A DNA stretch of 64,000 bases, from positions 1-64,000 of the IMG/VR virus record IMGVR_UViG_3300031555_003522. One strand, written 5' to 3'. Shown here one piece after another: positions 5,082-60,434 of this stretch (positions within the stretch are counted from its first letter, which is position 1; every line of letters begins with the position of its first letter). A program made the position numbers and the translations under genes. The DNA is from a virus. Taxonomy: Duplodnaviria > Caudoviricetes. The notes below the pieces were generated by a model, which worked only from the letters and a program-made list of their open reading frames with translations, was not told the origin of the DNA and ran no database searches.

Positions 5082-8000
5082 ATGCCTACTAATACAAGAC
5101 GACCGCCTGTCACTAAGACAAGCGTCGCCAGATATGTAAAAAATGTTGGTAAGTCTCTTGCATTGGCATCTGTAGATGTAATTTCTGACAATGCTCCTGC
5201 TATGAAGATTTTCCTTCAAGAAAGCGATGAATATATCAAGAAGGGATTCGCATATATAAAGAATCCCAGAGCCGCTACAGATAGGGCCGAGAGACAGACT
5301 TTGGTAAGTAAAGTCTATCAAGCTGTTGGTAGTGGATTAAATAAATTTAAAAATGATGTTTTAACTGGAGACATGTATAATGATTCCAAAGCTCAGGCTC
5401 ATATGCTAGATGAGTTTAATAAAGAGATGGGATTCGATGACATGTCAGAGTCTGATGACTTTAATTGGAATGATGGAGATAGATCAGCATCTGGAACTTC
5501 TGCTGTATCCGATAGCTATAGTGTAGCTATCGGGGCAGCTGCACAAACTCATGCTACTGCAGTTGCTCAGGGTACAGAATTAGTAATTGGTGCTAATAAA
5601 GCTTCTACTAAATTGCTTGTTGCTAATATGGATAAATTGGGAGTAAATATTAGTGCTGGCTTAGCATCTGTCTATTCTAATATTAGTATAACTAATAAAA
5701 GCATTCAGACTCATGTTGAAAATTCTAATAAATTCTATGAAGCAACCAATGATCTTTTTAGAGAACAGGTTGCTTTAATGAGAGAATTAGTAGACATGCA
5801 AAGATCTCTATATGCTCCAAATAAATATAATAGATATGGCAATAGAGGCACTGCATTGTCTTCGTCTATGGATGGCTATGGTAATATAAAATTAGATGGT
5901 TATCTGAAGAATATTAAAAAGAATATTGAAAATAATCTTGGGCTTATGGGTCTATTCGACAATGATGCTGGTAGTCCGATAAATATGTTGTTGACCGCCA
6001 TCATGGATCCTACCAAGATGATTACAAAAGCATTTATGAATAAAATGCTTCCTAAAGCATTCAAGAGTAATATTGCTTCTATGGATAAAGCCTTAGCTTC
6101 TATGTTTTCTCAGCTAATTGCTGCATTAAATAGAAAGAAGTTTGAAGGAAATACTCTTGGTTCTATAGCATCCATATTCGGTATTAATCTCGATAATAAG
6201 ACTACTATAAATCCGAAAGAATATTTTAAAAACGCCATACCTTTTGATGGTATAACCAAGCAAGCAATTATAGAGACAATACCTGGTTATCTGTCTAGAA
6301 TTGAAGCTGCATTAACTGGTATGAATGAAAGATATTATGATTATGAGGAAGGTCGTTGGACTAAGTTTGACGCTATACTTGATAGATTCGAACATGAGAA
6401 AAAAACCAATATAGCTAGTGCAAACAGAGGTATCAGAGATGATCTTTCTAATACTATGCGTGATTTAAGATCCAAGGATCCTAGAAATGCAGAATCTATA
6501 CAAAAGTCTATAGATTATATGATGAATAAGATCTATAGTGATAATGGATATTTTAGAATAGATAAGGTTGGTAGTGAACCGGCATGGAGCTATTATGGAT
6601 TCAAGAGTAAAAAGATATTTGATGAAGTAATAGTAAAAAATCTATCCAAATCTACTATTCGTGATCTGGCCAGAAAGAATATGATGGCTAAGGAAGATTT
6701 CTCCAGAAGGATGAGGGGAAAAGAAGGGGCTCATGCAATCGAGCGTCAGATCTTCAATAATTCTCAAGACTATGATTTCACATCTAGCAAATCTAGATCT
6801 ATGATTAAAGGTACTGGATTACTATCTCTCAGCTATGATGAAGAAGGCAAAAATGTTTTCTATTACTTGAGAGAAATCTTGGGTAGAATGGGAAATAGAC
6901 CTAAGAATAAAAATAATAATTCTAGAACTAGACATAGTAGAAATCGCTCTAAGCGTCAGTCTACTACAACAAATACAACTTCTTCTGATAGTTCTGATTC
7001 TGACGGTGATGGGGATGGTGACCCTGAGTCGGAAGGATATATAGATGATTCTATATGGGAAGAATTGGACAAAAAGCGTGCAAAAGAACTTGAAGAATCC
7101 AATAAAGTAAAAGAGTTCTTCGATAAATTATCTGGTGTATTTGATAAATCTCCAGTAGGAAGAATGTTTACTACTATTGGTAAAGGTCTTGCTGATGTAT
7201 TTTCTTCTCCCATAAATTATATGACCAAGATGCTTGAAAAAGCAGATGAGAGCTTATTCAAAGTATTCTTTGGAGAAAATGAAGAATTTGTCGATGAGCA
7301 TGGTAAAAAGATCGGTGTATGGCAAAAGATGCTAAATGAAATGAAAAGCTCTTTTAATAATATTACTGAAAAAATAGCCAAAGCTCTTAAGTTTGATAAA
7401 TTCGAAGAGTTCCTTAAATCTAAAGTTGAACCATACGTAAAGCCCGTATGGAATGAAATCAAATCTACTGCAGGAAGAGGTTTTAATAGAGCTAAAACAG
7501 CAGTAGGTAATACATTTGGTAAGGCGTTCAAATCTGCATCTGCTAAATTTACCAATATTGCTAATAAAGTTTCAAATGGTGGAGTAGTAACTGCAGATGA
7601 AGTGGAAAATATAGATAATCGCGAAATGGTACAGGATAACGATGAGTTCTACGACAATATTGTTGAAAGTGCTTATGGTAGAGTTGTTACCAAACGTGGT
7701 TTAACTATGATCTCTCCTGGTGAAGTAATTATTCCTGCAACTTCTGATCGTAAGAAGCAGAATAAGATGCTTGCAGGTGAGAGAAAAGATAGAAGTAGAA
7801 TAGTAAGAGCTTTCAAGTCTATGAGTGGTAAAATTGGTTTAAATGCCAAGGGTACAGTAGATTTGAATAAGCTTAAAGATTCTCTATACAAGATTTATAA
7901 CGAGAATAAGGCTGGAGCATCTAAAGTTGCAGCTGGTGGTGTATTGGGTCTTGGTGCTGGTTTATTAACTGGTATTAATCCTTTACTTGGAGCTGTTGCT

Positions 8001-44888: not shown

Positions 44889-45188
44889 GAAGGTATTATA
44901 TTTCAATTGGAAATATCTATATCTTCAAAATAAACGCCTCATCTATAAAGGTAGGTGATTGAGGCGATAAATACGAGCAAATCCTACCAGGTTGATTATA
45001 AGTCATTATGGGGACTAGTGACATCAACCAGTTACCTGCGCAGGTACTAATAGTTCCCAAAAGTGACGTAGCAATTAGTAGTTGTAGAGGTGATTGACTG
45101 TATTCCTCGTAATCGCTACTATGGGATGTCGAAAAGTCAATAAAGAAGTAGATGGAGAGTGTACAACACTCTCCACTATTTTTTTTTT
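44889..45188 (+). ncRNA. predicted structured ncRNA: 5' hairpin plus three tandem pseudoknots
   Basis: AACA-TATATT-TG promoter 44878-44889; many complementary segments; GGAGAGTGT/ACACTCTCC terminator with long T run; no RBS-led ORF. Confidence 0.65.
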
Positions 45189-45244
45189 GTTTTTCCTTTT
45201 ATTGTCCACTTAATTCACATATTAATAAAAGAGGTGATGCTTAT

Positions 45245-46918
45245 ATGCCAGATTTAATAAGGGGTGATCACCTTAGAGTGAGTCTTATAGACCCCGAAAG
45301 ACTGGTAAAAGTCAATGATCTCAAAGAGATTACCAATCCCATTTCATTCGTTCGAAATTCAGTTCCTACCTCTGATGGATTATTATCTAATGAAATATTT
45401 GGAATTACCAAATATGATCGCGCTAATACATTTGCATACATCGATCTTCATGAGGAGTTTTTAAACCCTCTAATTTATAAGATGTGGTGCAAAGTTGATT
45501 CTAATGTTAAAGCATGCGTTCATGGTATAAAATATTTCAAGATAAATGATAAGGGTGAACTTGAAGAAGATCCGGAAAATGGTGATAATGGTATTAGGTT
45601 TCTTAGAGACAATATTAAGAAAATTAAGATTAAGCGTACTGGATCTAAACAAAGAGACATGCGTGTAGACTTTATAGAGAGCTATATCGGTAAGCCTGAA
45701 ATGTTTATTAAGAAATATATAGTATGCCCAGCATTCTATAGAGACGTTAATAACGATAAAGGCAAAGTATCTTTAGGAGCAATCAATGAATTGTATAGGT
45801 CTTTGTTGATCTCTGTTAGAGCTCTTAGAGAGTCCTCCGAATATGGTTTAAATCTAACTTCTGCTACTCGTGGTCGTATACAGGAAACTCTTGTTCAAAT
45901 ATACGACTGGTTTGGATCTGGTACTACTATAAATGGCGAGAAAACTAGCAATCTTATTCCTGGCAAATTTGGTATTATTAGACAGGGTGTTATGTCCAAA
46001 ACAACAGACTATGCTACTCGTCTAGTTCTATCGGCTCCAGAACTCAAGGTTGAACGGTTAGAGGATGTAGAAGCAGATCTCGATTATTCTGTACTTCCGT
46101 TAGCATCTGCTTGTGCAAACTTCCTTCCGTTCATAGTATATCATGTGAGAAGAATGTTTGAAAATGAGTTCTCTGGAGATGCGGTTATACCCTATATAAA
46201 TAAAGATAAGAGTATAACCTATTTACATCCGAAAGATTATCAAGTAGAATTTTCTGATGAAAGAATTAAGAAAGAAATAGATAGATTTTTGACAGGTTTC
46301 TCAAATAGATTTATTCCTTTAGAAGTTCCTACAGTAGAAGGTATTACTGTACGCTATAGATTTAAAGGATATAATATGACTGCTGAAGAGTATGCAAAAT
46401 CTGATATAGGTAAGATGCCTATAATGGAACGAGACTTAACTTGGTGTGATATACTCTATCAAGCAGCAGTAGAAGCTACAAAAGATAAACATATACTGAT
46501 TACCAGGTATCCTATAGACACTTATTTTAATCAGTTTCCAACCAAGATTAAAATAGCTTCTACCACAAGAACTGAACCTATGGTTGTAGGTAGTAAATTC
46601 TATAAAAATTATCCCTATATTCGTCAAGAAGATATTGGTACTAATACTTCTAATAAATTTATTGATACTTTGAATATTAGTAATCTATATCTAGATGGAA
46701 TAGGTGGAGATTATGATGGTGACCAGGTAACCGTAAAGGGAGCCTTTACAGAAGAGACAAATGCAGAGCTTGCTGAACAGCTTAAATCTAAAGCTCACTA
46801 CTTTAATCTTGGTGGTAAGGGTGTTAGAACTTCTGATAAAGAAGCTATTCAGAGCTTATATAGTTTGACATTGTGTCTAGATGCGGATAAAGAAAAAATC
46901 TCTGCACCTGTTTTCTAA
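45245..46918 (+). CDS. rpoC: phage RNA polymerase beta'-like N-terminal subunit with catalytic motif (virion-RNAP type)
   Basis: DGLLSNEIFG, PGKFGIIR, TRYP, GGDYDGD; start ATG 45245 after GAGGTG. Confidence 0.85.
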   Translation: MPDLIRGDHLRVSLIDPERLVKVNDLKEITNPISFVRNSVPTSDGLLSNEIFGITKYDRANTFAYIDLHEEFLNPLIYKMWCKVDSNVKACVHGIKYFKINDKGELEEDPENGDNGIRFLRDNIKKIKIKRTGSKQRDMRVDFIESYIGKPEMFIKKYIVCPAFYRDVNNDKGKVSLGAINELYRSLLISVRALRESSEYGLNLTSATRGRIQETLVQIYDWFGSGTTINGEKTSNLIPGKFGIIRQGVMSKTTDYATRLVLSAPELKVERLEDVEADLDYSVLPLASACANFLPFIVYHVRRMFENEFSGDAVIPYINKDKSITYLHPKDYQVEFSDERIKKEIDRFLTGFSNRFIPLEVPTVEGITVRYRFKGYNMTAEEYAKSDIGKMPIMERDLTWCDILYQAAVEATKDKHILITRYPIDTYFNQFPTKIKIASTTRTEPMVVGSKFYKNYPYIRQEDIGTNTSNKFIDTLNISNLYLDGIGGDYDGDQVTVKGAFTEETNAELAEQLKSKAHYFNLGGKGVRTSDKEAIQSLYSLTLCLDADKEKISAPVF

Positions 46919-52760: not shown

Positions 52761-52867
52761 AGAAAAGGGTAAGAGGTTTTATACTTCTTACCCTTCTTTT
52801 TTTTTATTTTTATTAGCCCTTTAACTATTACAATAAGTATTTTAAGGTGGTGATTTTAGAAGTGGAT

Positions 52868-53674
52868 ATGACTTTTCAACAATACATAGATAATCCTATG
52901 GGAAAAAAGAATGCAGTATTCTCCCAAAGAGACCTGTATAAAACTATGTACGTAGAAAAATTTGACAAGTTACTTCTAAGAGAGGCTGGTAAAATAGATT
53001 ATACGTTATATATAGATAAAAAGAAGGATCGATATGCTATCCACATTAAAATACCTTCTGAAACTGTAAAAGATTTCTATTATGACGCAGTAATTCTATT
53101 TTATACAAACGATGCCGCATCTAATGCATCGCCCAACCTACAGGGGTACAAAGTCAAGTTTTTCTCTAATGACCCCGCATTTGTCTTTACTTATCTAAGA
53201 GTTTTTCTTAAGCATGATCTTTTCTTAGAAGACCTTAAGCCTAAAGCATCTAAACTTGCTTTGACCAAAGATCCTAAAGAAAAGAATCCTTATGAAGTTC
53301 CTGGATATAGCAAAATTCTCTATTTTGCATATCTTTATATGAAAGCAAAGAATCTGTTTGCTAAACATATGTATCAGTCATATGGGGTCCCGTATGACCC
53401 TAAAGTTTTGGTACAGAAAGTAGAGCATACAGATAAAAAGATTGCTGATAGACAAAGGCTTGGTGAAGAACAAGCCAAAGCTTCTGCTAGAGAGGCTAAA
53501 GCTCAGAGAATCGCGACCAATCAGTCTAGAAATCTGAGTTCCAAATCTGGCAATGTTATAGGAACAAAAAGAATTGGAGAAACACCTGGTAACGTGACGG
53601 CAACACGTAAAGTAGGTTCGGTAAAAACAACTAAACGAACACCGTTTAGTTCGTTTTCCTCAAAGAAGAAATGA
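52868..53674 (+). CDS. conserved jumbo-phage protein with basic tail
   Basis: KIPSE..YD..I.F..VKFFSN.PAFVFTY motif; start 52847 or 52868. Confidence 0.6.
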   Translation: MTFQQYIDNPMGKKNAVFSQRDLYKTMYVEKFDKLLLREAGKIDYTLYIDKKKDRYAIHIKIPSETVKDFYYDAVILFYTNDAASNASPNLQGYKVKFFSNDPAFVFTYLRVFLKHDLFLEDLKPKASKLALTKDPKEKNPYEVPGYSKILYFAYLYMKAKNLFAKHMYQSYGVPYDPKVLVQKVEHTDKKIADRQRLGEEQAKASAREAKAQRIATNQSRNLSSKSGNVIGTKRIGETPGNVTATRKVGSVKTTKRTPFSSFSSKKK

Positions 53675-53686: not shown

Positions 53687-53717
53687 ACTAGTGATCAATA
53701 TACAGGAGGTTAAAAAC

Positions 53718-56700
53718 ATGGGCCAACAAAAGGAATTAATGGAGGCTATGGAGTTCTTTGATCCCATACCATTTCAATATGTGGATGAATGGACACCTGG
53801 TCCGGACGATGAAGTCTTTAAAACTACTCGAGGCGCAATAATGTTAGATGTATCTGGTTTCTATGGGATGGAACCAAACCCACAGCTAGATGCATTTGTA
53901 TTGAGTGCTAAGAGGTCTTATAATAATCCTGATATGAGGACCCATACGTGCCATTACCTGAACTATTTTGAAAAATTCTATGATACTGATCACGAATTAC
54001 CAATGATTTATTGTAGATTAAAGTATCTCATTGATTGTGAACCTGCTTATAGTAGAGAGGCATTTATTTACGATCTTTATCGTTATATTATGCATGGATC
54101 TATCTATACAAAGGTTAGCTATATGAATGATGCTAACTACAGTCTATCATTAACCTATAAAAACGTGAAGAATCCTAATCTTCAATATAGTGATTGAGAA
54201 CAGTCACCTCGATATAGAAATATAGCGAGTAAAACTCCTCTAATTGCTGGAAACTCGTAAAGCTCATCTGCTACGGATATGGGAAACGAAAAAGGGAGTA
54301 CCTATCCTACAGAGACGAAAGTCAGAAACAAGTGATGAGATGATCTATGAGGAAACTCTAAGGGTTTAGCCATCAATCGACAACCAGCAGCCAAGCAAAT
54401 TAAGCTACGCAAACTAGCTTCGGATTATTTTAAACATATATTCGCCGGTATGATGGAATTGGTAAGACATAAGAGACTTAAAATCTCTCGGATTAAGTTC
54501 CGTACCGGTTCGAGTCCGGTTACCGGCACCAACCTATTTATAGATTCTGTGGTTATGAATCTATACCAAAATATAATCCACATACTTAACCAGCGTAGCC
54601 AAGTTGAAGGTTCAACGACTATCGAAAGGATAGTGCGACATGCTTGCAACGCATGTGCATGAATAACCGAGTAGAGTAGGGCTCGAGCGAGCTCGAAATG
54701 GGGAGCACCTTAGCGGATAAGTGCCGAAGGTGAAGATATAGTCTGGACTATGGGTAATGCCTATAGAAGTTCATTAAAGAACTGCGCACCAAAAGCGACG
54801 TGCGTGAACATCTCGAGGCATGGACGGATAATGATGAAAGTATCAGTCCTCATGAATATAATTATCCCTCTTATGTGTCATTTTATGTATGCGCGTAAGA
54901 TTGATAATACAACTGAGTTTATTCTCGCTGTCTACGACGTACTTATTGATCAGTATGACGTAGATATATACAATAAGCTGTACGAAACGGCTATCTCTAA
55001 TGTCTTACGTACAGCAAAAAGAAATCAAGCAATCTGGAATATGCAAGATATTCGTGGTATCAATACTAGTATCCACAGTCTACAGTCAGTACAGAATGTC
55101 TTGATAAATATAATGCCTTAACCAAACTAGGGCCATATGATAGCAATATCATATAGCAAACTCCTTTAATTGCTGGGAACTCTCACTGAGACAATCAGCA
55201 GCGAAGCCTCTATATGGGGAACGTTCAACGACTATCGAAAGGATAATGTAAGAGAAATACTTACATGAATAACCGAGTAGAGTAGGATTTATGTCCGAAA
55301 TGGGGAGCATCTTAAATATGGTAATAGTATTTGAGATGAAGATATAGTCTACTCCTTGCAGCGATGTAAGGTATACAGGAAATATAGGTACGATGGAAAT
55401 TTGTGACAAAGTTTCCTCATGTGGGAACACATGATCCAACAAGCTCTCTAATTGCTGGGAACTCTCACTGAGACAATCAGCAGCGAAGCCTCTATATGAG
55501 GAACGTTCAACGACTAGTCGAAAGACGTAGGTTCAAGCGAACCGAAATGGGAGCCACCCCAATGCTTAATAAATAAGTAATGGGTGAAGATATAGTCTGG
55601 TCTGCATGGCAACATGCAGTAGTTCATAAGAGAACAGTGTAAGATTAGCGATCTTACACGAACAACCGCTTGTCCATCTCAACTACAAGTCAATTTTACG
55701 AAATACTGGATTTCAGGTTCTGGATAATCATTTAAATGTCCACATACATGGTAACATGTATAGTAAAACTTCTTTAATTGCTGGAAGGCTAAACTTGATT
55801 AAGCAAGCATGCTAATCAGCAGCCAAGATGTTAATTTAATGATTCGGAGAGTATCTAAAATGATGACTTATGATTTTTCCAATTATTCTTATAATGGACT
55901 TCAAGTCCCTATAGAATTTTGGAAACCCATTACAGAAGAAATGGTTCCAAATGTGAAACCAATATACTTTGTAAGTAATATAGGAAATATTTATAATTCT
56001 GAGAATAATAAATATTCTATAATTACACTAAAAGCTGGTAGATATGTACAGGTTAGTCTTCGTACTAAAGATGGAGGACAAATCTGTATTCATATTCATA
56101 GATTAGTGGCCATGGCATTTCATGGAATGCCACCATCTAAAGACCATGAAGTAGATCATGTAAATTGCGATAAAACCTGTAATTTTGAGGGTAATCTTGA
56201 ATGGGTAACCCCAAAAGAAAATATAAATAGAGCTTGCATAAATAATTTGATTAGGATGGGTGAAGATAATTATAGAGCTATCTTAACCAATGATGATGTA
56301 ACTCATTTATGTGAATTACTAATGCAATCCATTCCTATCTCTAAAATATGTACTATGATGGAAGAGTATATCTATCCTAGAGTATATAGCAGCGGATTTA
56401 AAGGCTTAATAGGTCATATATTATGTGGAGATGTATGGAAAGAAATCGCAAGTCAATACAATTTTCCAGATTACGGTAGATTAAATTTTACCGATGATCA
56501 AGTTCGTATAATATGCGAATGCCTGAGCAGACAGGAACGATATATAGACATTCTTGATAAACTCGGTATGAGCAACTGTACAGAGCAGGAATTGAAGAGA
56601 CTAAAAGAGACTATATATAAGATCAAAGCAGGTAAGTCTTATGCTAATATTTCTTGTAATTACAATATTACAAGAAATAAGAGTTATATACTTACAAATA

Positions 56701-58029
56701 ATGAAGTTGATAGTATATGTAGGCAAGTAGCTCTTGGTATTGATAGAAAGGAAATAGTAAAATCCTTAGGCGAGCGTGGTAATGATAGAAAGGTAAAACA
56801 AGCAGCATATGATATATGTAATGGTATCTGCCATAAAAAAGAAGTCAATTATTATAGATCTCAATTAACAGAAGGTTCAACGACTATCGAAAAGGATCCT
56901 AATAAGGATTAACTGAGTAGAGTAGGGCTCAAGCGAGTTCGAAATGGGAAGGGTCCACTAAAGTGGATCGTGATATAGTCTCAACTGTATGGAAACATGC
57001 AGAAGTTCATAGGAGAACTGCATAGGAGTTGCGATCCTATGTGAAGGTAATGATAGAATATGAATTCAGCTTCGTATCTCTTTCCTCAAGTCGCAGAGAC
57101 GAGGATCTTAATTCTGAATTTGATAAATTTGAGTCAACTTAAGAAAAGGCTCCTTGTTATAGAAATATAGCAAGCAAACCTCTTGAATTGCTGGGAACTC
57201 TTAATGCCTATCTGCCTATATGGAGACGAAAGTCAGAAACAAGTGATGGGATGATCTATGGGGAAACCCTAATGATTTTGATAATAGATAATCAGCAGCG
57301 AAGCCTCTTATTGAGAGGAACGTTCAACGACTATCGAAAGGCATCTATAGGATGAACCGAGTAGAGTAGGATATTTATATATCCGAAGTGGGAGGTACCT
57401 GACCGAGTAATGTCGAAGGTAATGATATAGTCTACTGAATAAGAACAGCTTTTCTTAATAAAGCAGATGAGCAGCTTCTGGTTCAGCATAATTGCGCTGC
57501 TAGAGATGCTATGACTATGATTGAAATGATGTATGGTCCTTTTGATGAGGAAGAAATATTGTTCTATAAACATCGTCTTGCAGATGGTGGGAAATGTACA
57601 ATCAATGCGTTCCAGAGAGACCTCATCTTCAATCTATTCTTTAAGTATTTTGGTGATACTGCTAGCTTAAATGCTATTAACTTCGATGACTATGTCAAGT
57701 TAATTATGGCATCCAGAAGAATTCTTGAAGCTTCTGGAATGGTATTATTGCCCTATATTGTAAGCTCTAAGATTGTTCGTCTTGCTAGCCGCAAGAGTGT
57801 GAACAAGAAAGAGCTTACCAAATTAGAATCTTCTCCCCTATGGGAAAAGATCAAAGATAAGTATAAGAATGATAAAATTGAGAAACACATACTTGGTATG
57901 ATTGCTGTCATATTAAGTAGTGACTTCGAGATCATTGATCCGGAAGATCTGGAGCTTGATGGCCAAGCTATTACAGTGATTCCTGAACTGATCTGTGAAG
58001 AAATTCTCATGTATATTAGTCTTATCTAA
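53718..58029 (+). CDS. spliced gene, six exons (53718-54194, 54816-55118, 55380-55400, 55669-55725, 57053-57134, 57449-58029), about 506 aa; probable non-virion RNAP promoter-specificity (sigma-like, AR9 gp226/phiKZ gp68 type) subunit
   Basis: Removing five introns (exon ends in U, intron ends in G) gives one open frame ..LQYSD|RHGRIMM..INIMP|KYRYDGN|LVHLN..QVLD|IEYEF..DKFES|FLNKAD..; identity inferred from recalled motifs, size and early promoter. Confidence 0.7.
54195..54815 (+). mobile_element. group I intron 1 (contains tRNA-Leu)
   Basis: P1 GTGAT/GTCAC with U.G; AATTGCTGGAAA, CAGCAGCCAAG, TTCAACGACTA, GATATAGTC core; 3' end G54815 (or G54818). Confidence 0.85.
54444..54531 (+). tRNA. 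trnL: tRNA-Leu(UAA), CCA encoded
   Basis: Acceptor GCCGGTA/TACCGGC, anticodon arm AGAGA-CTTAAAA-TCTCT, long variable arm, ACCGG-TTCGAGT-CCGGT, A73, CCA. Confidence 0.95.
55119..55379 (+). mobile_element. group I intron 2 (no ORF)
   Basis: P1 GCCT/GGGC; full core motifs; P9 CCTTGCA-GCGA-TGTAAGG; ends in G. Confidence 0.85.
55401..55668 (+). mobile_element. group I intron 3 (no ORF)
   Basis: P1 GGAAAT/GTTTCC; P10 TTGTC/GACAA; full core motifs; ends in G. Confidence 0.85.
55726..57052 (+). mobile_element. group I intron 4 (HNH homing endonuclease in P6)
   Basis: P1 TGGAT/GTCCA; core motifs flank the ORF; ends in G. Confidence 0.85.
55860..56912 (+). CDS. intron-encoded HNH homing endonuclease (NUMOD4-like N-term, three C-terminal helical repeats)
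   Basis: HRLVAMAF..VDHVNCDKTCN...NLEWVT.KEN; repeats LTNDDV/FTDDQV/LTNNEV; GGAGAG RBS before 55860. Confidence 0.85.
   Translation: MMTYDFSNYSYNGLQVPIEFWKPITEEMVPNVKPIYFVSNIGNIYNSENNKYSIITLKAGRYVQVSLRTKDGGQICIHIHRLVAMAFHGMPPSKDHEVDHVNCDKTCNFEGNLEWVTPKENINRACINNLIRMGEDNYRAILTNDDVTHLCELLMQSIPISKICTMMEEYIYPRVYSSGFKGLIGHILCGDVWKEIASQYNFPDYGRLNFTDDQVRIICECLSRQERYIDILDKLGMSNCTEQELKRLKETIYKIKAGKSYANISCNYNITRNKSYILTNNEVDSICRQVALGIDRKEIVKSLGERGNDRKVKQAAYDICNGICHKKEVNYYRSQLTEGSTTIEKDPNKD
57135..57448 (+). mobile_element. group I intron 5 (no ORF, very short 3' domain)
   Basis: P1 GAGT/GCTC; perfect 8-bp P10 AAGAAAAG/CTTTTCTT; core motifs; splits a Ser codon T|CT. Confidence 0.85.
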
Positions 58030-58628: not shown

Positions 58629-59597
58629 ATGATTTATTCTATTACCGAAGGCCAGCAGGCTGAAGAATATAAAGCTAGAAAGGCTAAAGAGGCTGAAGAA
58701 CATATTGCAAAAAATACAAGTAGATCTGAAACTGATTCTCTTGGAGATGGAATTATAAATTCACATTTTGTTGGGAATAAGACTAAAATACTTGATGATA
58801 AGAAAGGGCATTTTAAATTTAGCCATACGGATACTCGACGAAGAGAGATGGCTATGAATAAAGTAGTGGATGAAACTAAAAGAAGAAATGATAAAGCACT
58901 TCAAAATTTTACTCCTATAAATAATAGAAATGCGGATAATCTGCTTAGTGATAAATATTTTGGGGTTGCTGTTGATGCTGTAAATCGTCATATGCGGCGT
59001 CATCCTGATCAATATAAAGAATCTTTTTTACTTACAGAAGAAGATGCCGATGAATTCTTAGAATCTATCGGTGTAACTTTATATGAAGACTATGTTACTA
59101 TTGGAGAATGTTCCATTCCTGGAGTGGAAGCTGAAGCTATTCTGGAAGAGCACGGTATCTTCTTATGTGAAGAAGGTATCATTATCGAAGGTGAACAGGC
59201 TGAAGAATATAAGGCTAGAAAAGCAAAAGAAAAAGAAGATGCTAAGCAAGCTGATGATGATCGTTTTATGAGGAGATACATGCCTAGAATAGATGAAAAA
59301 GGACGTCAACATAACGATCCCGGAGATAAGACTATTGGATATGGGCATGGTAGTGATGATTTCGATAGAGCTATGAAAGCACACGATATGGCTAATCGCG
59401 AATATAATAGGCGGACCATTGCTATGATGAATTCTAAGTTACGTGGTGATGATAAACAAACTGTTCGACAAAAAGAAAAAGAATGGCTGAAATCTGTTGG
59501 TGAGACACCTAGAGATGCTGCTAATCGTCATATGCGTCGTCATCCTAAACAGTATAAAGAATCTTGTGGTATTTTCTCTAATGTAGCATTTATCTAA
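58629..59597 (+). CDS. putative internal head (ejected) protein, two tandem modules
   Basis: EGxQAEEYKARKAKE...DAxNRHMRRH..YKES twice; C-terminal ESCGIFSNVAFI; AACG-N6-TA promoter. Confidence 0.65.
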   Translation: MIYSITEGQQAEEYKARKAKEAEEHIAKNTSRSETDSLGDGIINSHFVGNKTKILDDKKGHFKFSHTDTRRREMAMNKVVDETKRRNDKALQNFTPINNRNADNLLSDKYFGVAVDAVNRHMRRHPDQYKESFLLTEEDADEFLESIGVTLYEDYVTIGECSIPGVEAEAILEEHGIFLCEEGIIIEGEQAEEYKARKAKEKEDAKQADDDRFMRRYMPRIDEKGRQHNDPGDKTIGYGHGSDDFDRAMKAHDMANREYNRRTIAMMNSKLRGDDKQTVRQKEKEWLKSVGETPRDAANRHMRRHPKQYKESCGIFSNVAFI

Positions 59598-59732: not shown

Positions 59733-60434
59733 ATGGAAAGAATTATTCTTACTGAAGCCGATGCCGATGAATTCTTAGAATCTATTGGTGTCACTTTATA
59801 TGAAAAGGCTATGAATATTGGAGGAAATATTGTATTTGGAGTAGACGGCCAAGAGGCCCTTCAAGAATATGGTATCTTCTTATATGAAGATTATATTTTG
59901 GTTGAAGGTGAGCAAGCTGAGGCTTACAAAGCTAAAAAGGCTAAAGAAAAAGAAGAAGAATCTAAAAAATATGATAAATATGATAATGATAATTTTAAAG
60001 ATTCTGCCCCAAAATTTATGAAGGGTTCTAGAGCAAATAATAGTGTAGGAAATCAAGCTAGTTTAAAACAGATTGATATCAAGGATATTAAAGGGTCTAC
60101 TAAAAAATATAGCGATACTAGATCTAATGACAGTATTAGGCGGCAGTATGCTTCGGATATAGTAGAAAAAGATAGATTAAATAGAAACCCTCAATATAGC
60201 GGAAAAGGAATAACTATTAGAACTTCTGATGGTAAACCTAGTTCATGGACTTTAGAAAGAGATTATAGAAAAGGAGCAATCAATCAAAATCCTCTTTATG
60301 ATAAATATTTCGATGATAAAGATAAAAGAATAGCATATTTTGCAGCTAAAGATGCTGCAAATAGACATTTACGTAGGCATACTAAGACGGTAAAAGAATC
60401 TTGTGGTATCTTCTCTAATGTAGCTTTTATCTAA
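59733..60434 (+). CDS. putative internal head (ejected) protein, paralogue of 58629
   Basis: Same acidic propeptide, module ends and identical C-terminal ESCGIFSNVAFI. Confidence 0.65.
   Translation: MERIILTEADADEFLESIGVTLYEKAMNIGGNIVFGVDGQEALQEYGIFLYEDYILVEGEQAEAYKAKKAKEKEEESKKYDKYDNDNFKDSAPKFMKGSRANNSVGNQASLKQIDIKDIKGSTKKYSDTRSNDSIRRQYASDIVEKDRLNRNPQYSGKGITIRTSDGKPSSWTLERDYRKGAINQNPLYDKYFDDKDKRIAYFAAKDAANRHLRRHTKTVKESCGIFSNVAFI

Follow-up and report, generated by a model that had tools for sequence, protein, structure and literature searches.

A gene on the + strand of a 64,000-nucleotide (nt) stretch of viral DNA, positions 1 to 64,000 of the IMG/VR record IMGVR_UViG_3300031555_003522 (Duplodnaviria; Caudoviricetes) and referred to here as the window, is divided into six exons by five group I introns. 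It spans positions 53718-58029, 4312 nt of which 65% is intron, and its joined exons encode a single 506 amino acid (aa) protein of the family of AR9 gp226, a sigma-like subunit of a phage RNA polymerase (RNAP). The five introns are related to one another and have very probably been stacked in this one gene by repeated invasion and recombination at a conserved target. The pattern found is one of mobility: intron content varies among near-identical alleles, the insertion sites cluster in a conserved and essential segment, a single endonuclease-bearing intron lies amid others which hold no open reading frame (ORF), and modules have been exchanged.

The exon map was obtained by tblastn of three intron-less homologues (P0037, P0038, and P0042; 505-512 aa) onto the window, which gave six colinear exons of, in order, 477, 303, 21, 57, 82, and 581 nt, all on the + strand. 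Exon 1 (53718-54194; 159 codons) begins at an ATG with AGGAGG upstream of it at 53706-53711, and the homologue alignment stops exactly at its end, ...NPNLQYSD. In exon 2 (54816-55118; 101 codons) the alignment runs from RHGRIMMK to ...LINIMP, whilst exon 3 (55380-55400) encodes only KYRYDGN, a peptide which is aligned without gaps and is 100% identical in the three intron-less homologues. Exon 4 (55669-55725; 19 codons) encodes LVHLNYKSILRNTGFQVLD and shares 74-95% identity with the homologues; exon 5 (57053-57134), for which the identity is 75-91%, ends with the first base of a serine codon; and exon 6 (57449-58029, its 581 nt including the stop codon) encodes the C-terminal domain at 67-77% identity over 193 aa. 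Joining at the predicted junctions (54194/54816, 55118/55380, 55400/55669, 55725/57053, and 57134/57449) gives 1521 nt, made up of 506 codons and the stop codon, and the frame is open throughout. The predicted spliced product shows no gap at any junction when aligned with five intron-less homologues, and its residues 9-506 fit a profile of 43 intron-less homologues from end to end (E 6e-240).

It is highly improbable that this arrangement is an artefact, with intron cores mis-assembled from a metagenome, or that the gene is decaying and no longer makes one protein. The contig does come from an uncultured virus, with an estimated completeness of ~65%, and some blocks are up to 96% identical between introns, both of which would fit with mis-assembly. 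However, the shared blocks are short (79 nt at most) and non-identical, every junction restores a perfect frame colinear with the homologues, all of the ribozyme cores and exons are intact, and a similar five-intron allele is present in L047, an independent contig of another sample (L-numbered loci are the alleles of relatives in public metagenome assemblies and IMG/VR).

The ribozyme cores were examined with the Rfam covariance model RF00028 (gathering score 50 bits), using a scan of the whole window and a second, more permissive one limited to 53.5-58.2 kb. The gathering score is exceeded by four introns, in which the catalytic core (P3-P9, including the guanosine site of P7) is conserved: intron 1 (54195-54815; 621 nt; 51.0 bits over 54185-54766), intron 2 (55119-55379; 261 nt; 96.6 bits over 55109-55371), intron 3 (55401-55668; 268 nt; 95.0 bits over 55391-55619), and intron 5 (57135-57448; 314 nt; 60.1 bits over 57131-57443). 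Intron 1 has large P5 and P6 extensions and a 3' boundary taken from the homologue alignment, whilst introns 2, 3, and 5 are without any cargo ORF. The boundary G of intron 2, at 55379, is fixed by the KYRYDGN exon; intron 3 ends in a structured 49-nt 3' tail; and intron 5 is a phase 1 insertion for which only the junction 57134/57449 gives back the ...FESFLNK... of the homologues. Intron 4 (55726-57052; 1327 nt) carries an endonuclease ORF in its P6 region and is below the gathering score, because this 1.1-kb ORF splits the core, so that two pieces flanking it are matched instead (55779-55832 with 17 bits and 56806-57002 with 26.7 bits). Its P1-P9 motifs are nevertheless legible in the sequence, and both halves of it, 5' and 3', match introns 1 and 3, as well as the introns of an RNAP beta gene described below, at 79-89% identity.

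At the homologue-fixed junctions the last base is T in all five 5' exons and G in all five introns. The last exon U would face a G in the P1 of every intron, with the partner strand of P1 8-15 nt into each intron, and the predicted pairings are GUGAU/GUCAC for intron 1, GCCU/GGGC for intron 2, GGAAAU/GUUUCC for intron 3, UGGAU/GUCCA for intron 4, and GAGU/GCUC for intron 5. In introns of subgroup IA, such as that of T4 td, P7.1 and P7.2 sit between P7 and P3'. The spacing from P7 to P3' is 50-70 nt in all five introns here, which appear from their sequences to have the extra P7-P3' hairpins typical of subgroup IA phage introns. The serine codon cut by intron 5 is UCU in the window, AGU or AGC in L054 and L005, neither of which has an intron there, and UCC in L002, so that the codon family differs at the very point of insertion.

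The true 3' splice sites fall 5-50 nt past the 3' ends of the Rfam matches. When those ends (54766, 55371, 55619, 57002, and 57443) were taken as splice sites the frame was broken or stop codons were met, both of which are avoided by the homologue-defined sites, and the Rfam 5' register of intron 5 (U at 57140) was rejected on the same grounds. In introns 1, 3, and 4 the additional sequence is a conserved 49-50-nt tail (54767-54815, 55620-55668, and 57003-57052, respectively) of nearly the same sequence, composed of two hairpins, one of GUUC/GAAC and the other a covarying 5-bp stem, and matching tails were found in L018, L038-L046, and L054. In an alignment of the tails of 12 introns from several insertion sites and several phages all 108 cells pair, compared with 25-59% when the partners were slid; in the second hairpin four of the five pairs vary, with 19 double-sided changes. 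The tail thus appears to be a structured part of the ribozyme that is absent from the Rfam model, and its terminal G coincides with the junction predicted from the protein.

A preliminary description of the locus had proposed five group I introns in one gene, each with a U.G-containing P1 and a terminal G, whose removal restores a single frame of ~506 aa with exons as small as 21, 57, and 82 nt, the smallest being KYRYDGN. This is borne out on each count by the four RF00028 matches above the gathering score together with the motifs and intron similarity of intron 4, by the U and G at the five junctions, by the alignment check against intron-less homologues, and by the tblastn map. It had also stated that no other gene in the 64 kb shows an intron, and the whole-window Rfam scan indeed gave no further RF00028 match. 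An RNAP beta piece within the window (45152-46918; phrog_2986, E 2e-79) is uninterrupted, whereas another beta-subunit gene elsewhere in the genome (phrog_2987) holds three more group I introns, of 95.8, 95.4, and 84.6 bits, at L053:2316-4241 (= G000:C1:96815-98740), outside the window. At least eight introns are therefore carried by two transcription-machinery genes of this phage.

The introns also share sequence with each other. Introns 2 and 3 have a common block of 79 nt at 96% identity, and introns 1 and 5 a common P5 extension at 85% identity; on this evidence the five introns look to be mosaic relatives of one another and of the three RNAP beta introns in the same genome. A DNA search of 50,697 isolate phage records gave no exon match; all that it found were short stretches of intron core, 80-95% identical, in phages that are not related, and no close relative in culture was identified.

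The host gene was identified by profile and structure comparison. In PHROGs and Pfam no family was found for either the exons or the full-length homologues, the sole result being a sub-threshold match to DUF5645, and a single-sequence search of the PDB gave no match. When the profile of the 43 intron-less homologues was compared with the PDB, one sequence was matched, chain A of 7S01, 7UM0, and 7UM1 (E 3e-24 for 7S01_A), with profile positions 31-496 aligned to residues 10-457 of 7S01_A, almost its full length. This chain corresponds to gp226 of AR9, as it has 464 residues and is present in the holoenzyme and promoter-complex entries and not in the core entry, 7S00 (PMC9209446). In AR9, gp226 is the promoter-specificity subunit of the non-virion RNAP, is needed for late-promoter recognition, and is composed of an N-terminal domain, a linker which becomes a sigma-finger-like element, and a C-terminal domain (PMC9209446). 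An AlphaFold model of the homologue P0037, which is 66-72% identical to the window protein, has a predicted local distance difference test score (pLDDT) of 86 and shows two domains with a flexible linker between them, confidence being low at ~residues 291-330. Foldseek with this model returned 7S01_A first (E 4e-15), 7UM0_A (E 3e-12), and, next after the AR9 chain, 8QUE_B of the phiKZ non-virion RNAP (E 4e-6). Both comparisons support the gene as a predicted full-length homologue of gp226, in agreement with the preliminary description, which had suspected a late-promoter specificity subunit. Its product would thus belong to a non-virion, multisubunit RNAP encoded by the phage itself, and the presence of beta pieces in the window (phrog_2986) and elsewhere in the genome (phrog_2987) is in keeping with a subunit encoded beside split beta/beta' genes.

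The sequence identity to AR9 gp226 is only ~20%, and the lengths are 464 and 506 aa, even though gp226 is the full-length profile match and the best structural match; because of this low identity the gene here is best placed in a clade of its own, made up of uncultured phages, and its carrier is regarded as a giant phage of AR9-like type. The published account of AR9 gp226 makes no mention of an intron (PMC9209446). When the introns of the window are placed on the protein, intron 1 falls after residue 159, within the N-terminal domain, and introns 2, 3, and 4 fall after residues 260, 267, and 286, where they cut the last helix of that domain. Introns 2-5 are thus concentrated in the linker and the closing part of the N-terminal domain. 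Exon 5 (residues 287-313) matches the low-confidence inter-domain stretch of the model and ~residues 261-294 of gp226 in the profile alignment, and would encode the inter-domain linker, the sigma-finger-like element by analogy with AR9. This segment is the most conserved motif of the family (...LSSSKRD.D.NSEFDKFES...).

The distribution of introns among the alleles of relatives, for which sites are numbered by residue of the joined gene, bears on how the stack arose. A search with the exon 6 ORF gave 134 longer homologues, some of them intron-less at ~500-515 aa, and 214 clusters of similar length; the latter are C-terminal fragments whose N-termini lie at several distinct points in the linker region. 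The closest allele found, L054 (on a 238-kb contig; ~95% protein identity overall, with exons at 94-98%), has introns only at sites 1 and 4, both of which reach the Rfam threshold. L001-L005 and L020, at ~80% protein identity, are one-intron alleles with intron 1 only, and in more than 30 IMG/VR loci the gene is uninterrupted. L047, on the other hand, has five introns, at 159/160, 260/261, 286/287, 306/307, and 383/384, two of them with ORFs. The site-1 intron is therefore common to L001-L005, L020, L047, and L054, the site-2 intron is also found in L047, and the site-4 intron in L047, L046, and L054, whilst no intron was found at site 3 in the other alleles examined. In more distant alleles the interruptions fall near residues 258-267, 292-298, 306, 310, and 320, the sites near 310 and 320 being those of L036-L044. 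There are thus at least eight insertion sites in this gene family, most of which lie within ~60 codons.

Rfam in E-value mode gave no RF00028 match in six of the more distant interrupted loci, nor in the intron 1 of L002, and related introns of L002, L040, and L046 escape Rfam even at E up to 0.1-1. As the gaps have 5' motifs and a covarying 3' tail in common with the introns that Rfam does detect, this points to a limit of sensitivity and not to absence of the introns. The possibility that the distant alleles are ordinary split genes, each giving two proteins, was set aside for those in which an intron tail ends in G at the junction; L049 may be such a split gene. The gene directly upstream in the window (52847-53674; 275 aa; phrog_20045, of unknown function) is syntenic with the sigma-like gene in L001-L004 and L054.

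That the intron set differs between close relatives is the signature of a mobile element and not of a conserved regulatory device. The preliminary description had taken the other view, in which five serial splicing steps have been selected to delay or gate the specificity subunit and so set the early-to-late switch, and skipping of exons 2-4 gives in-frame isoforms. There are grounds for such a proposal: the host gene is of the gp226 type needed for late-promoter recognition (PMC9209446), the full-length protein requires the removal of all five introns, and exons 2-4 are, as that description had said, each a multiple of 3 nt (303, 21, and 57). The near-identical 3' tails of introns 1, 3, and 4 might, moreover, allow neighbouring ribozymes to cross-react. 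Exon skipping is also said to have been described in phage Twort, going by a title cited in PMC11878797. However, a designed timer should be conserved, and no two lineages share the design, with five, two, one, or no introns, or a different five, in close relatives. Skipping would also delete the conserved end of the N-terminal domain, including for example the K267/Y268 that are nearly invariant in the family alignment, and the further introns of an RNAP beta gene make the load on this genome general and not specific to the switch. We therefore regard selection for a delay or checkpoint as very unlikely. Slower expression as a mere side effect of the intron load is a different matter, and is conceivable.

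Two of the introns carry cargo, in what is an equivalent P6 slot. In intron 4 this is a homing-endonuclease ORF of the HNH type (55809-56912, +; 367 aa as listed), which matches phrog_59 (HNH endonuclease, E 1e-31) and Pfam HNH_3 (E 4e-11), with a weak match to NUMOD4. Translation more likely begins at an ATG at 55860, which is preceded by GGAG. The ORF sits between the P4/P6 motif and P7, its ends overlapping the P4/P6 and P7-P8 core sequences. In intron 1 the cargo is a tRNA-Leu(UAA) at 54444-54531 (+), located in the P6 extension and having a long variable arm and an encoded CCA (RF00005, 54.8 bits over 54444-54528; Leu(UAA) by ARAGORN); the insert is closed by the stems GCTACGC/GCGTAGC and GGATTAT/ATAATCC. 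ARAGORN found this to be the sole tRNA in the window. The 160-kb record, which is ~65% complete, holds two tRNAs in all, and that of intron 1 is its only tRNA-Leu gene.

A tRNA-Leu is likewise present in the P6 loop of introns in relatives (L054:5824-5910, L054:6698-6781, L002:5619-5705, and L005:5705-5789). The anticodon is UAA in intron 1 of both the window and L054, and UAG in L001-L005, in L020, and in the site-4 intron of L054, where the tRNA takes the place occupied by the HNH ORF in the window; neither of the two L054 introns carries an endonuclease. The intronic copies of the relatives all encode CCA, and their acceptor and anticodon stems differ by paired, compensatory changes. Intron 1 of L047 retains only a remnant of the tRNA. 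In L001-L003 a free-standing tRNA-Leu(UAA) lies at ~7318-7405, some 290 nt downstream of the gene, where the window has none. The retention of intron 1 and its tRNA across lineages 20-30% apart in protein, with compensated tRNA stems, suggests that this intron has become useful. Use of the whole stack by the phage would go further: the tRNA and the sigma-like factor would be coupled via one transcript, the introns would serve as exchangeable P6 carriers of small genes, and five splicing steps would limit the timing of the late holoenzyme. Production of the tRNA and of the sigma-like factor would be coupled in this way if the tRNA is cut from excised intron 1. As an explanation of the stack we consider such use unlikely.

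The HNH ORF raises another possibility, namely that intron 4 encodes a weapon for competition between phages, in which the endonuclease cuts the intron-less sigma-like gene of co-infecting relatives, the introns protect their carrier by splitting the targets, and the stack is kept by between-phage selection. The ORF is intact, the target segment is essential and conserved, many alleles with and without introns co-circulate in public metagenome assemblies (L002 and L005 provide intron-less candidate target sequences), and there is a jumbo-phage precedent in PhiPA3 gp210 acting against PhiKZ gp178 (PMC11620839). Nevertheless, an endonuclease is found in only one of the five introns, and the closest relative, L054, keeps two introns with no endonuclease. 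The proposal also overlaps with ordinary homing, from which it is hard to tell apart, and cleavage is a prediction. Such a role is therefore possible but, as the reason for the stack, doubtful.

Repeated invasion by mobile introns, the reading preferred here, would proceed as follows. Mobile introns would repeatedly invade and recombine at one conserved target, made up of the linker and the last part of the N-terminal domain. As four of the five introns fall within 160 nt of coding sequence, the ORF-less ones would be close enough to the endonuclease-bearing intron to be inherited by co-conversion, and several introns could cross together when just one endonuclease cut in an intron-less allele is repaired. 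In the pre-mRNA, five guanosine-initiated self-splicing reactions would join the six exons, and by the exon map the full-length sigma-like subunit would be made only once all five introns had been removed. Several points should make this account be considered with caution. Because of its ORF, intron 4 falls short of the Rfam gathering score, the P1 of introns 2 and 5 has just four clear pairs, the splicing of all five introns is predicted from the sequence, and the proposal that the ORF-less introns were co-converted with intron 4 comes solely from their spacing. A purely selfish view, moreover, leaves the retention of intron 1 and its tRNA across a protein divergence of 20-30% unexplained, which suggests that some of the introns are now useful.

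Stacks of introns are already known in phages. Orf142 of Staphylococcus phage Twort reportedly holds three group I introns in one gene. Up to three have been recorded in DNA polymerase and terminase genes of the Bastillevirinae, and in Twort as cited there (PMC11878797). In both cases, as here, a protein gene is split by several related group I introns, some HNH-bearing and some ORF-less, with short internal exons. The gene here differs in being cut five times within 1.5 kb of coding sequence, with exons as short as 21, 57, and 82 nt. It also encodes a transcription factor, whereas those genes serve DNA metabolism or packaging, and one of its introns has a tRNA as cargo in place of an endonuclease.

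A closer parallel in terms of the host gene is gp210 of PhiPA3, an intron-encoded HNH endonuclease in a jumbo-phage RNAP gene, for which a competitive role has been shown by experiment (PMC11620839). Both cases have a group I intron with an HNH endonuclease in the transcription gene of a jumbo phage itself, but PhiPA3, which is phiKZ-like, has just one such intron in the gene concerned, and that gene encodes another polymerase subunit, whereas the case described here is known from sequence alone. By analogy, the intron 4 endonuclease may have a similar role in competition. The ‘Jug’ jumbo phages of the gut, which have 18.5 group I introns per genome on average, whose terL, nrdD, and polymerase genes are broken into two or three parts, and for which metatranscriptomes show splicing (PMC12880540), are like the phage here in being gut-associated, huge, and rich in group I introns. 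They nevertheless belong to a different group with genomes of 360-402 kb, and no five-intron gene, sigma-like host gene, or tRNA cargo is reported in that study (PMC12880540).

A literature search of an incomplete library gave no phage gene with four or more introns, the cases with four to six introns being organelle, rRNA, and fungal ones. In fungal mitochondria, judging from the title of one study, many group I introns are said to be stacked in one conserved gene, cox1. Transfer RNA genes inside introns have been recorded in mitogenomes of the Ophiostomatales (PMC7902536). Those are organelle genomes with protein-assisted splicing, unlike the bacterial virus here with its compact introns of 261-621 nt and one endonuclease carrier. 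The mechanism is thus a familiar one, and what is unusual is how densely the introns are packed, that the host gene is of a new class, and that a tRNA sits in a slot normally held by endonucleases.

Downstream of the gene, two adjacent ORFs (58629-59597, 322 aa, and 59733-60434, 233 aa) end in the same C-terminal peptide, ...KESCGIFSNVAFI, and have internal repeats such as EGEQAE.YKA.KAKEKE and DAANRH.RRH; no known family was matched when the first of them was tested.

For annotation, the consequence of this arrangement is that gene callers give mere fragments of a key protein. The natural series of alleles with zero, one, two, and five introns could be used to probe what introns cost in switch time, how ORF-less introns hitch-hike, and how introns act as carriers of tRNA genes. 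The gene widens what a bacterial virus is seen to tolerate, since a single essential gene of 1.5 kb accommodates five ribozymes and an exon of just 21 nt, and the sigma-like subunit of jumbo-phage RNAP, its linker above all, emerges as a major landing site for mobile introns at which hundreds of natural alleles are interrupted.

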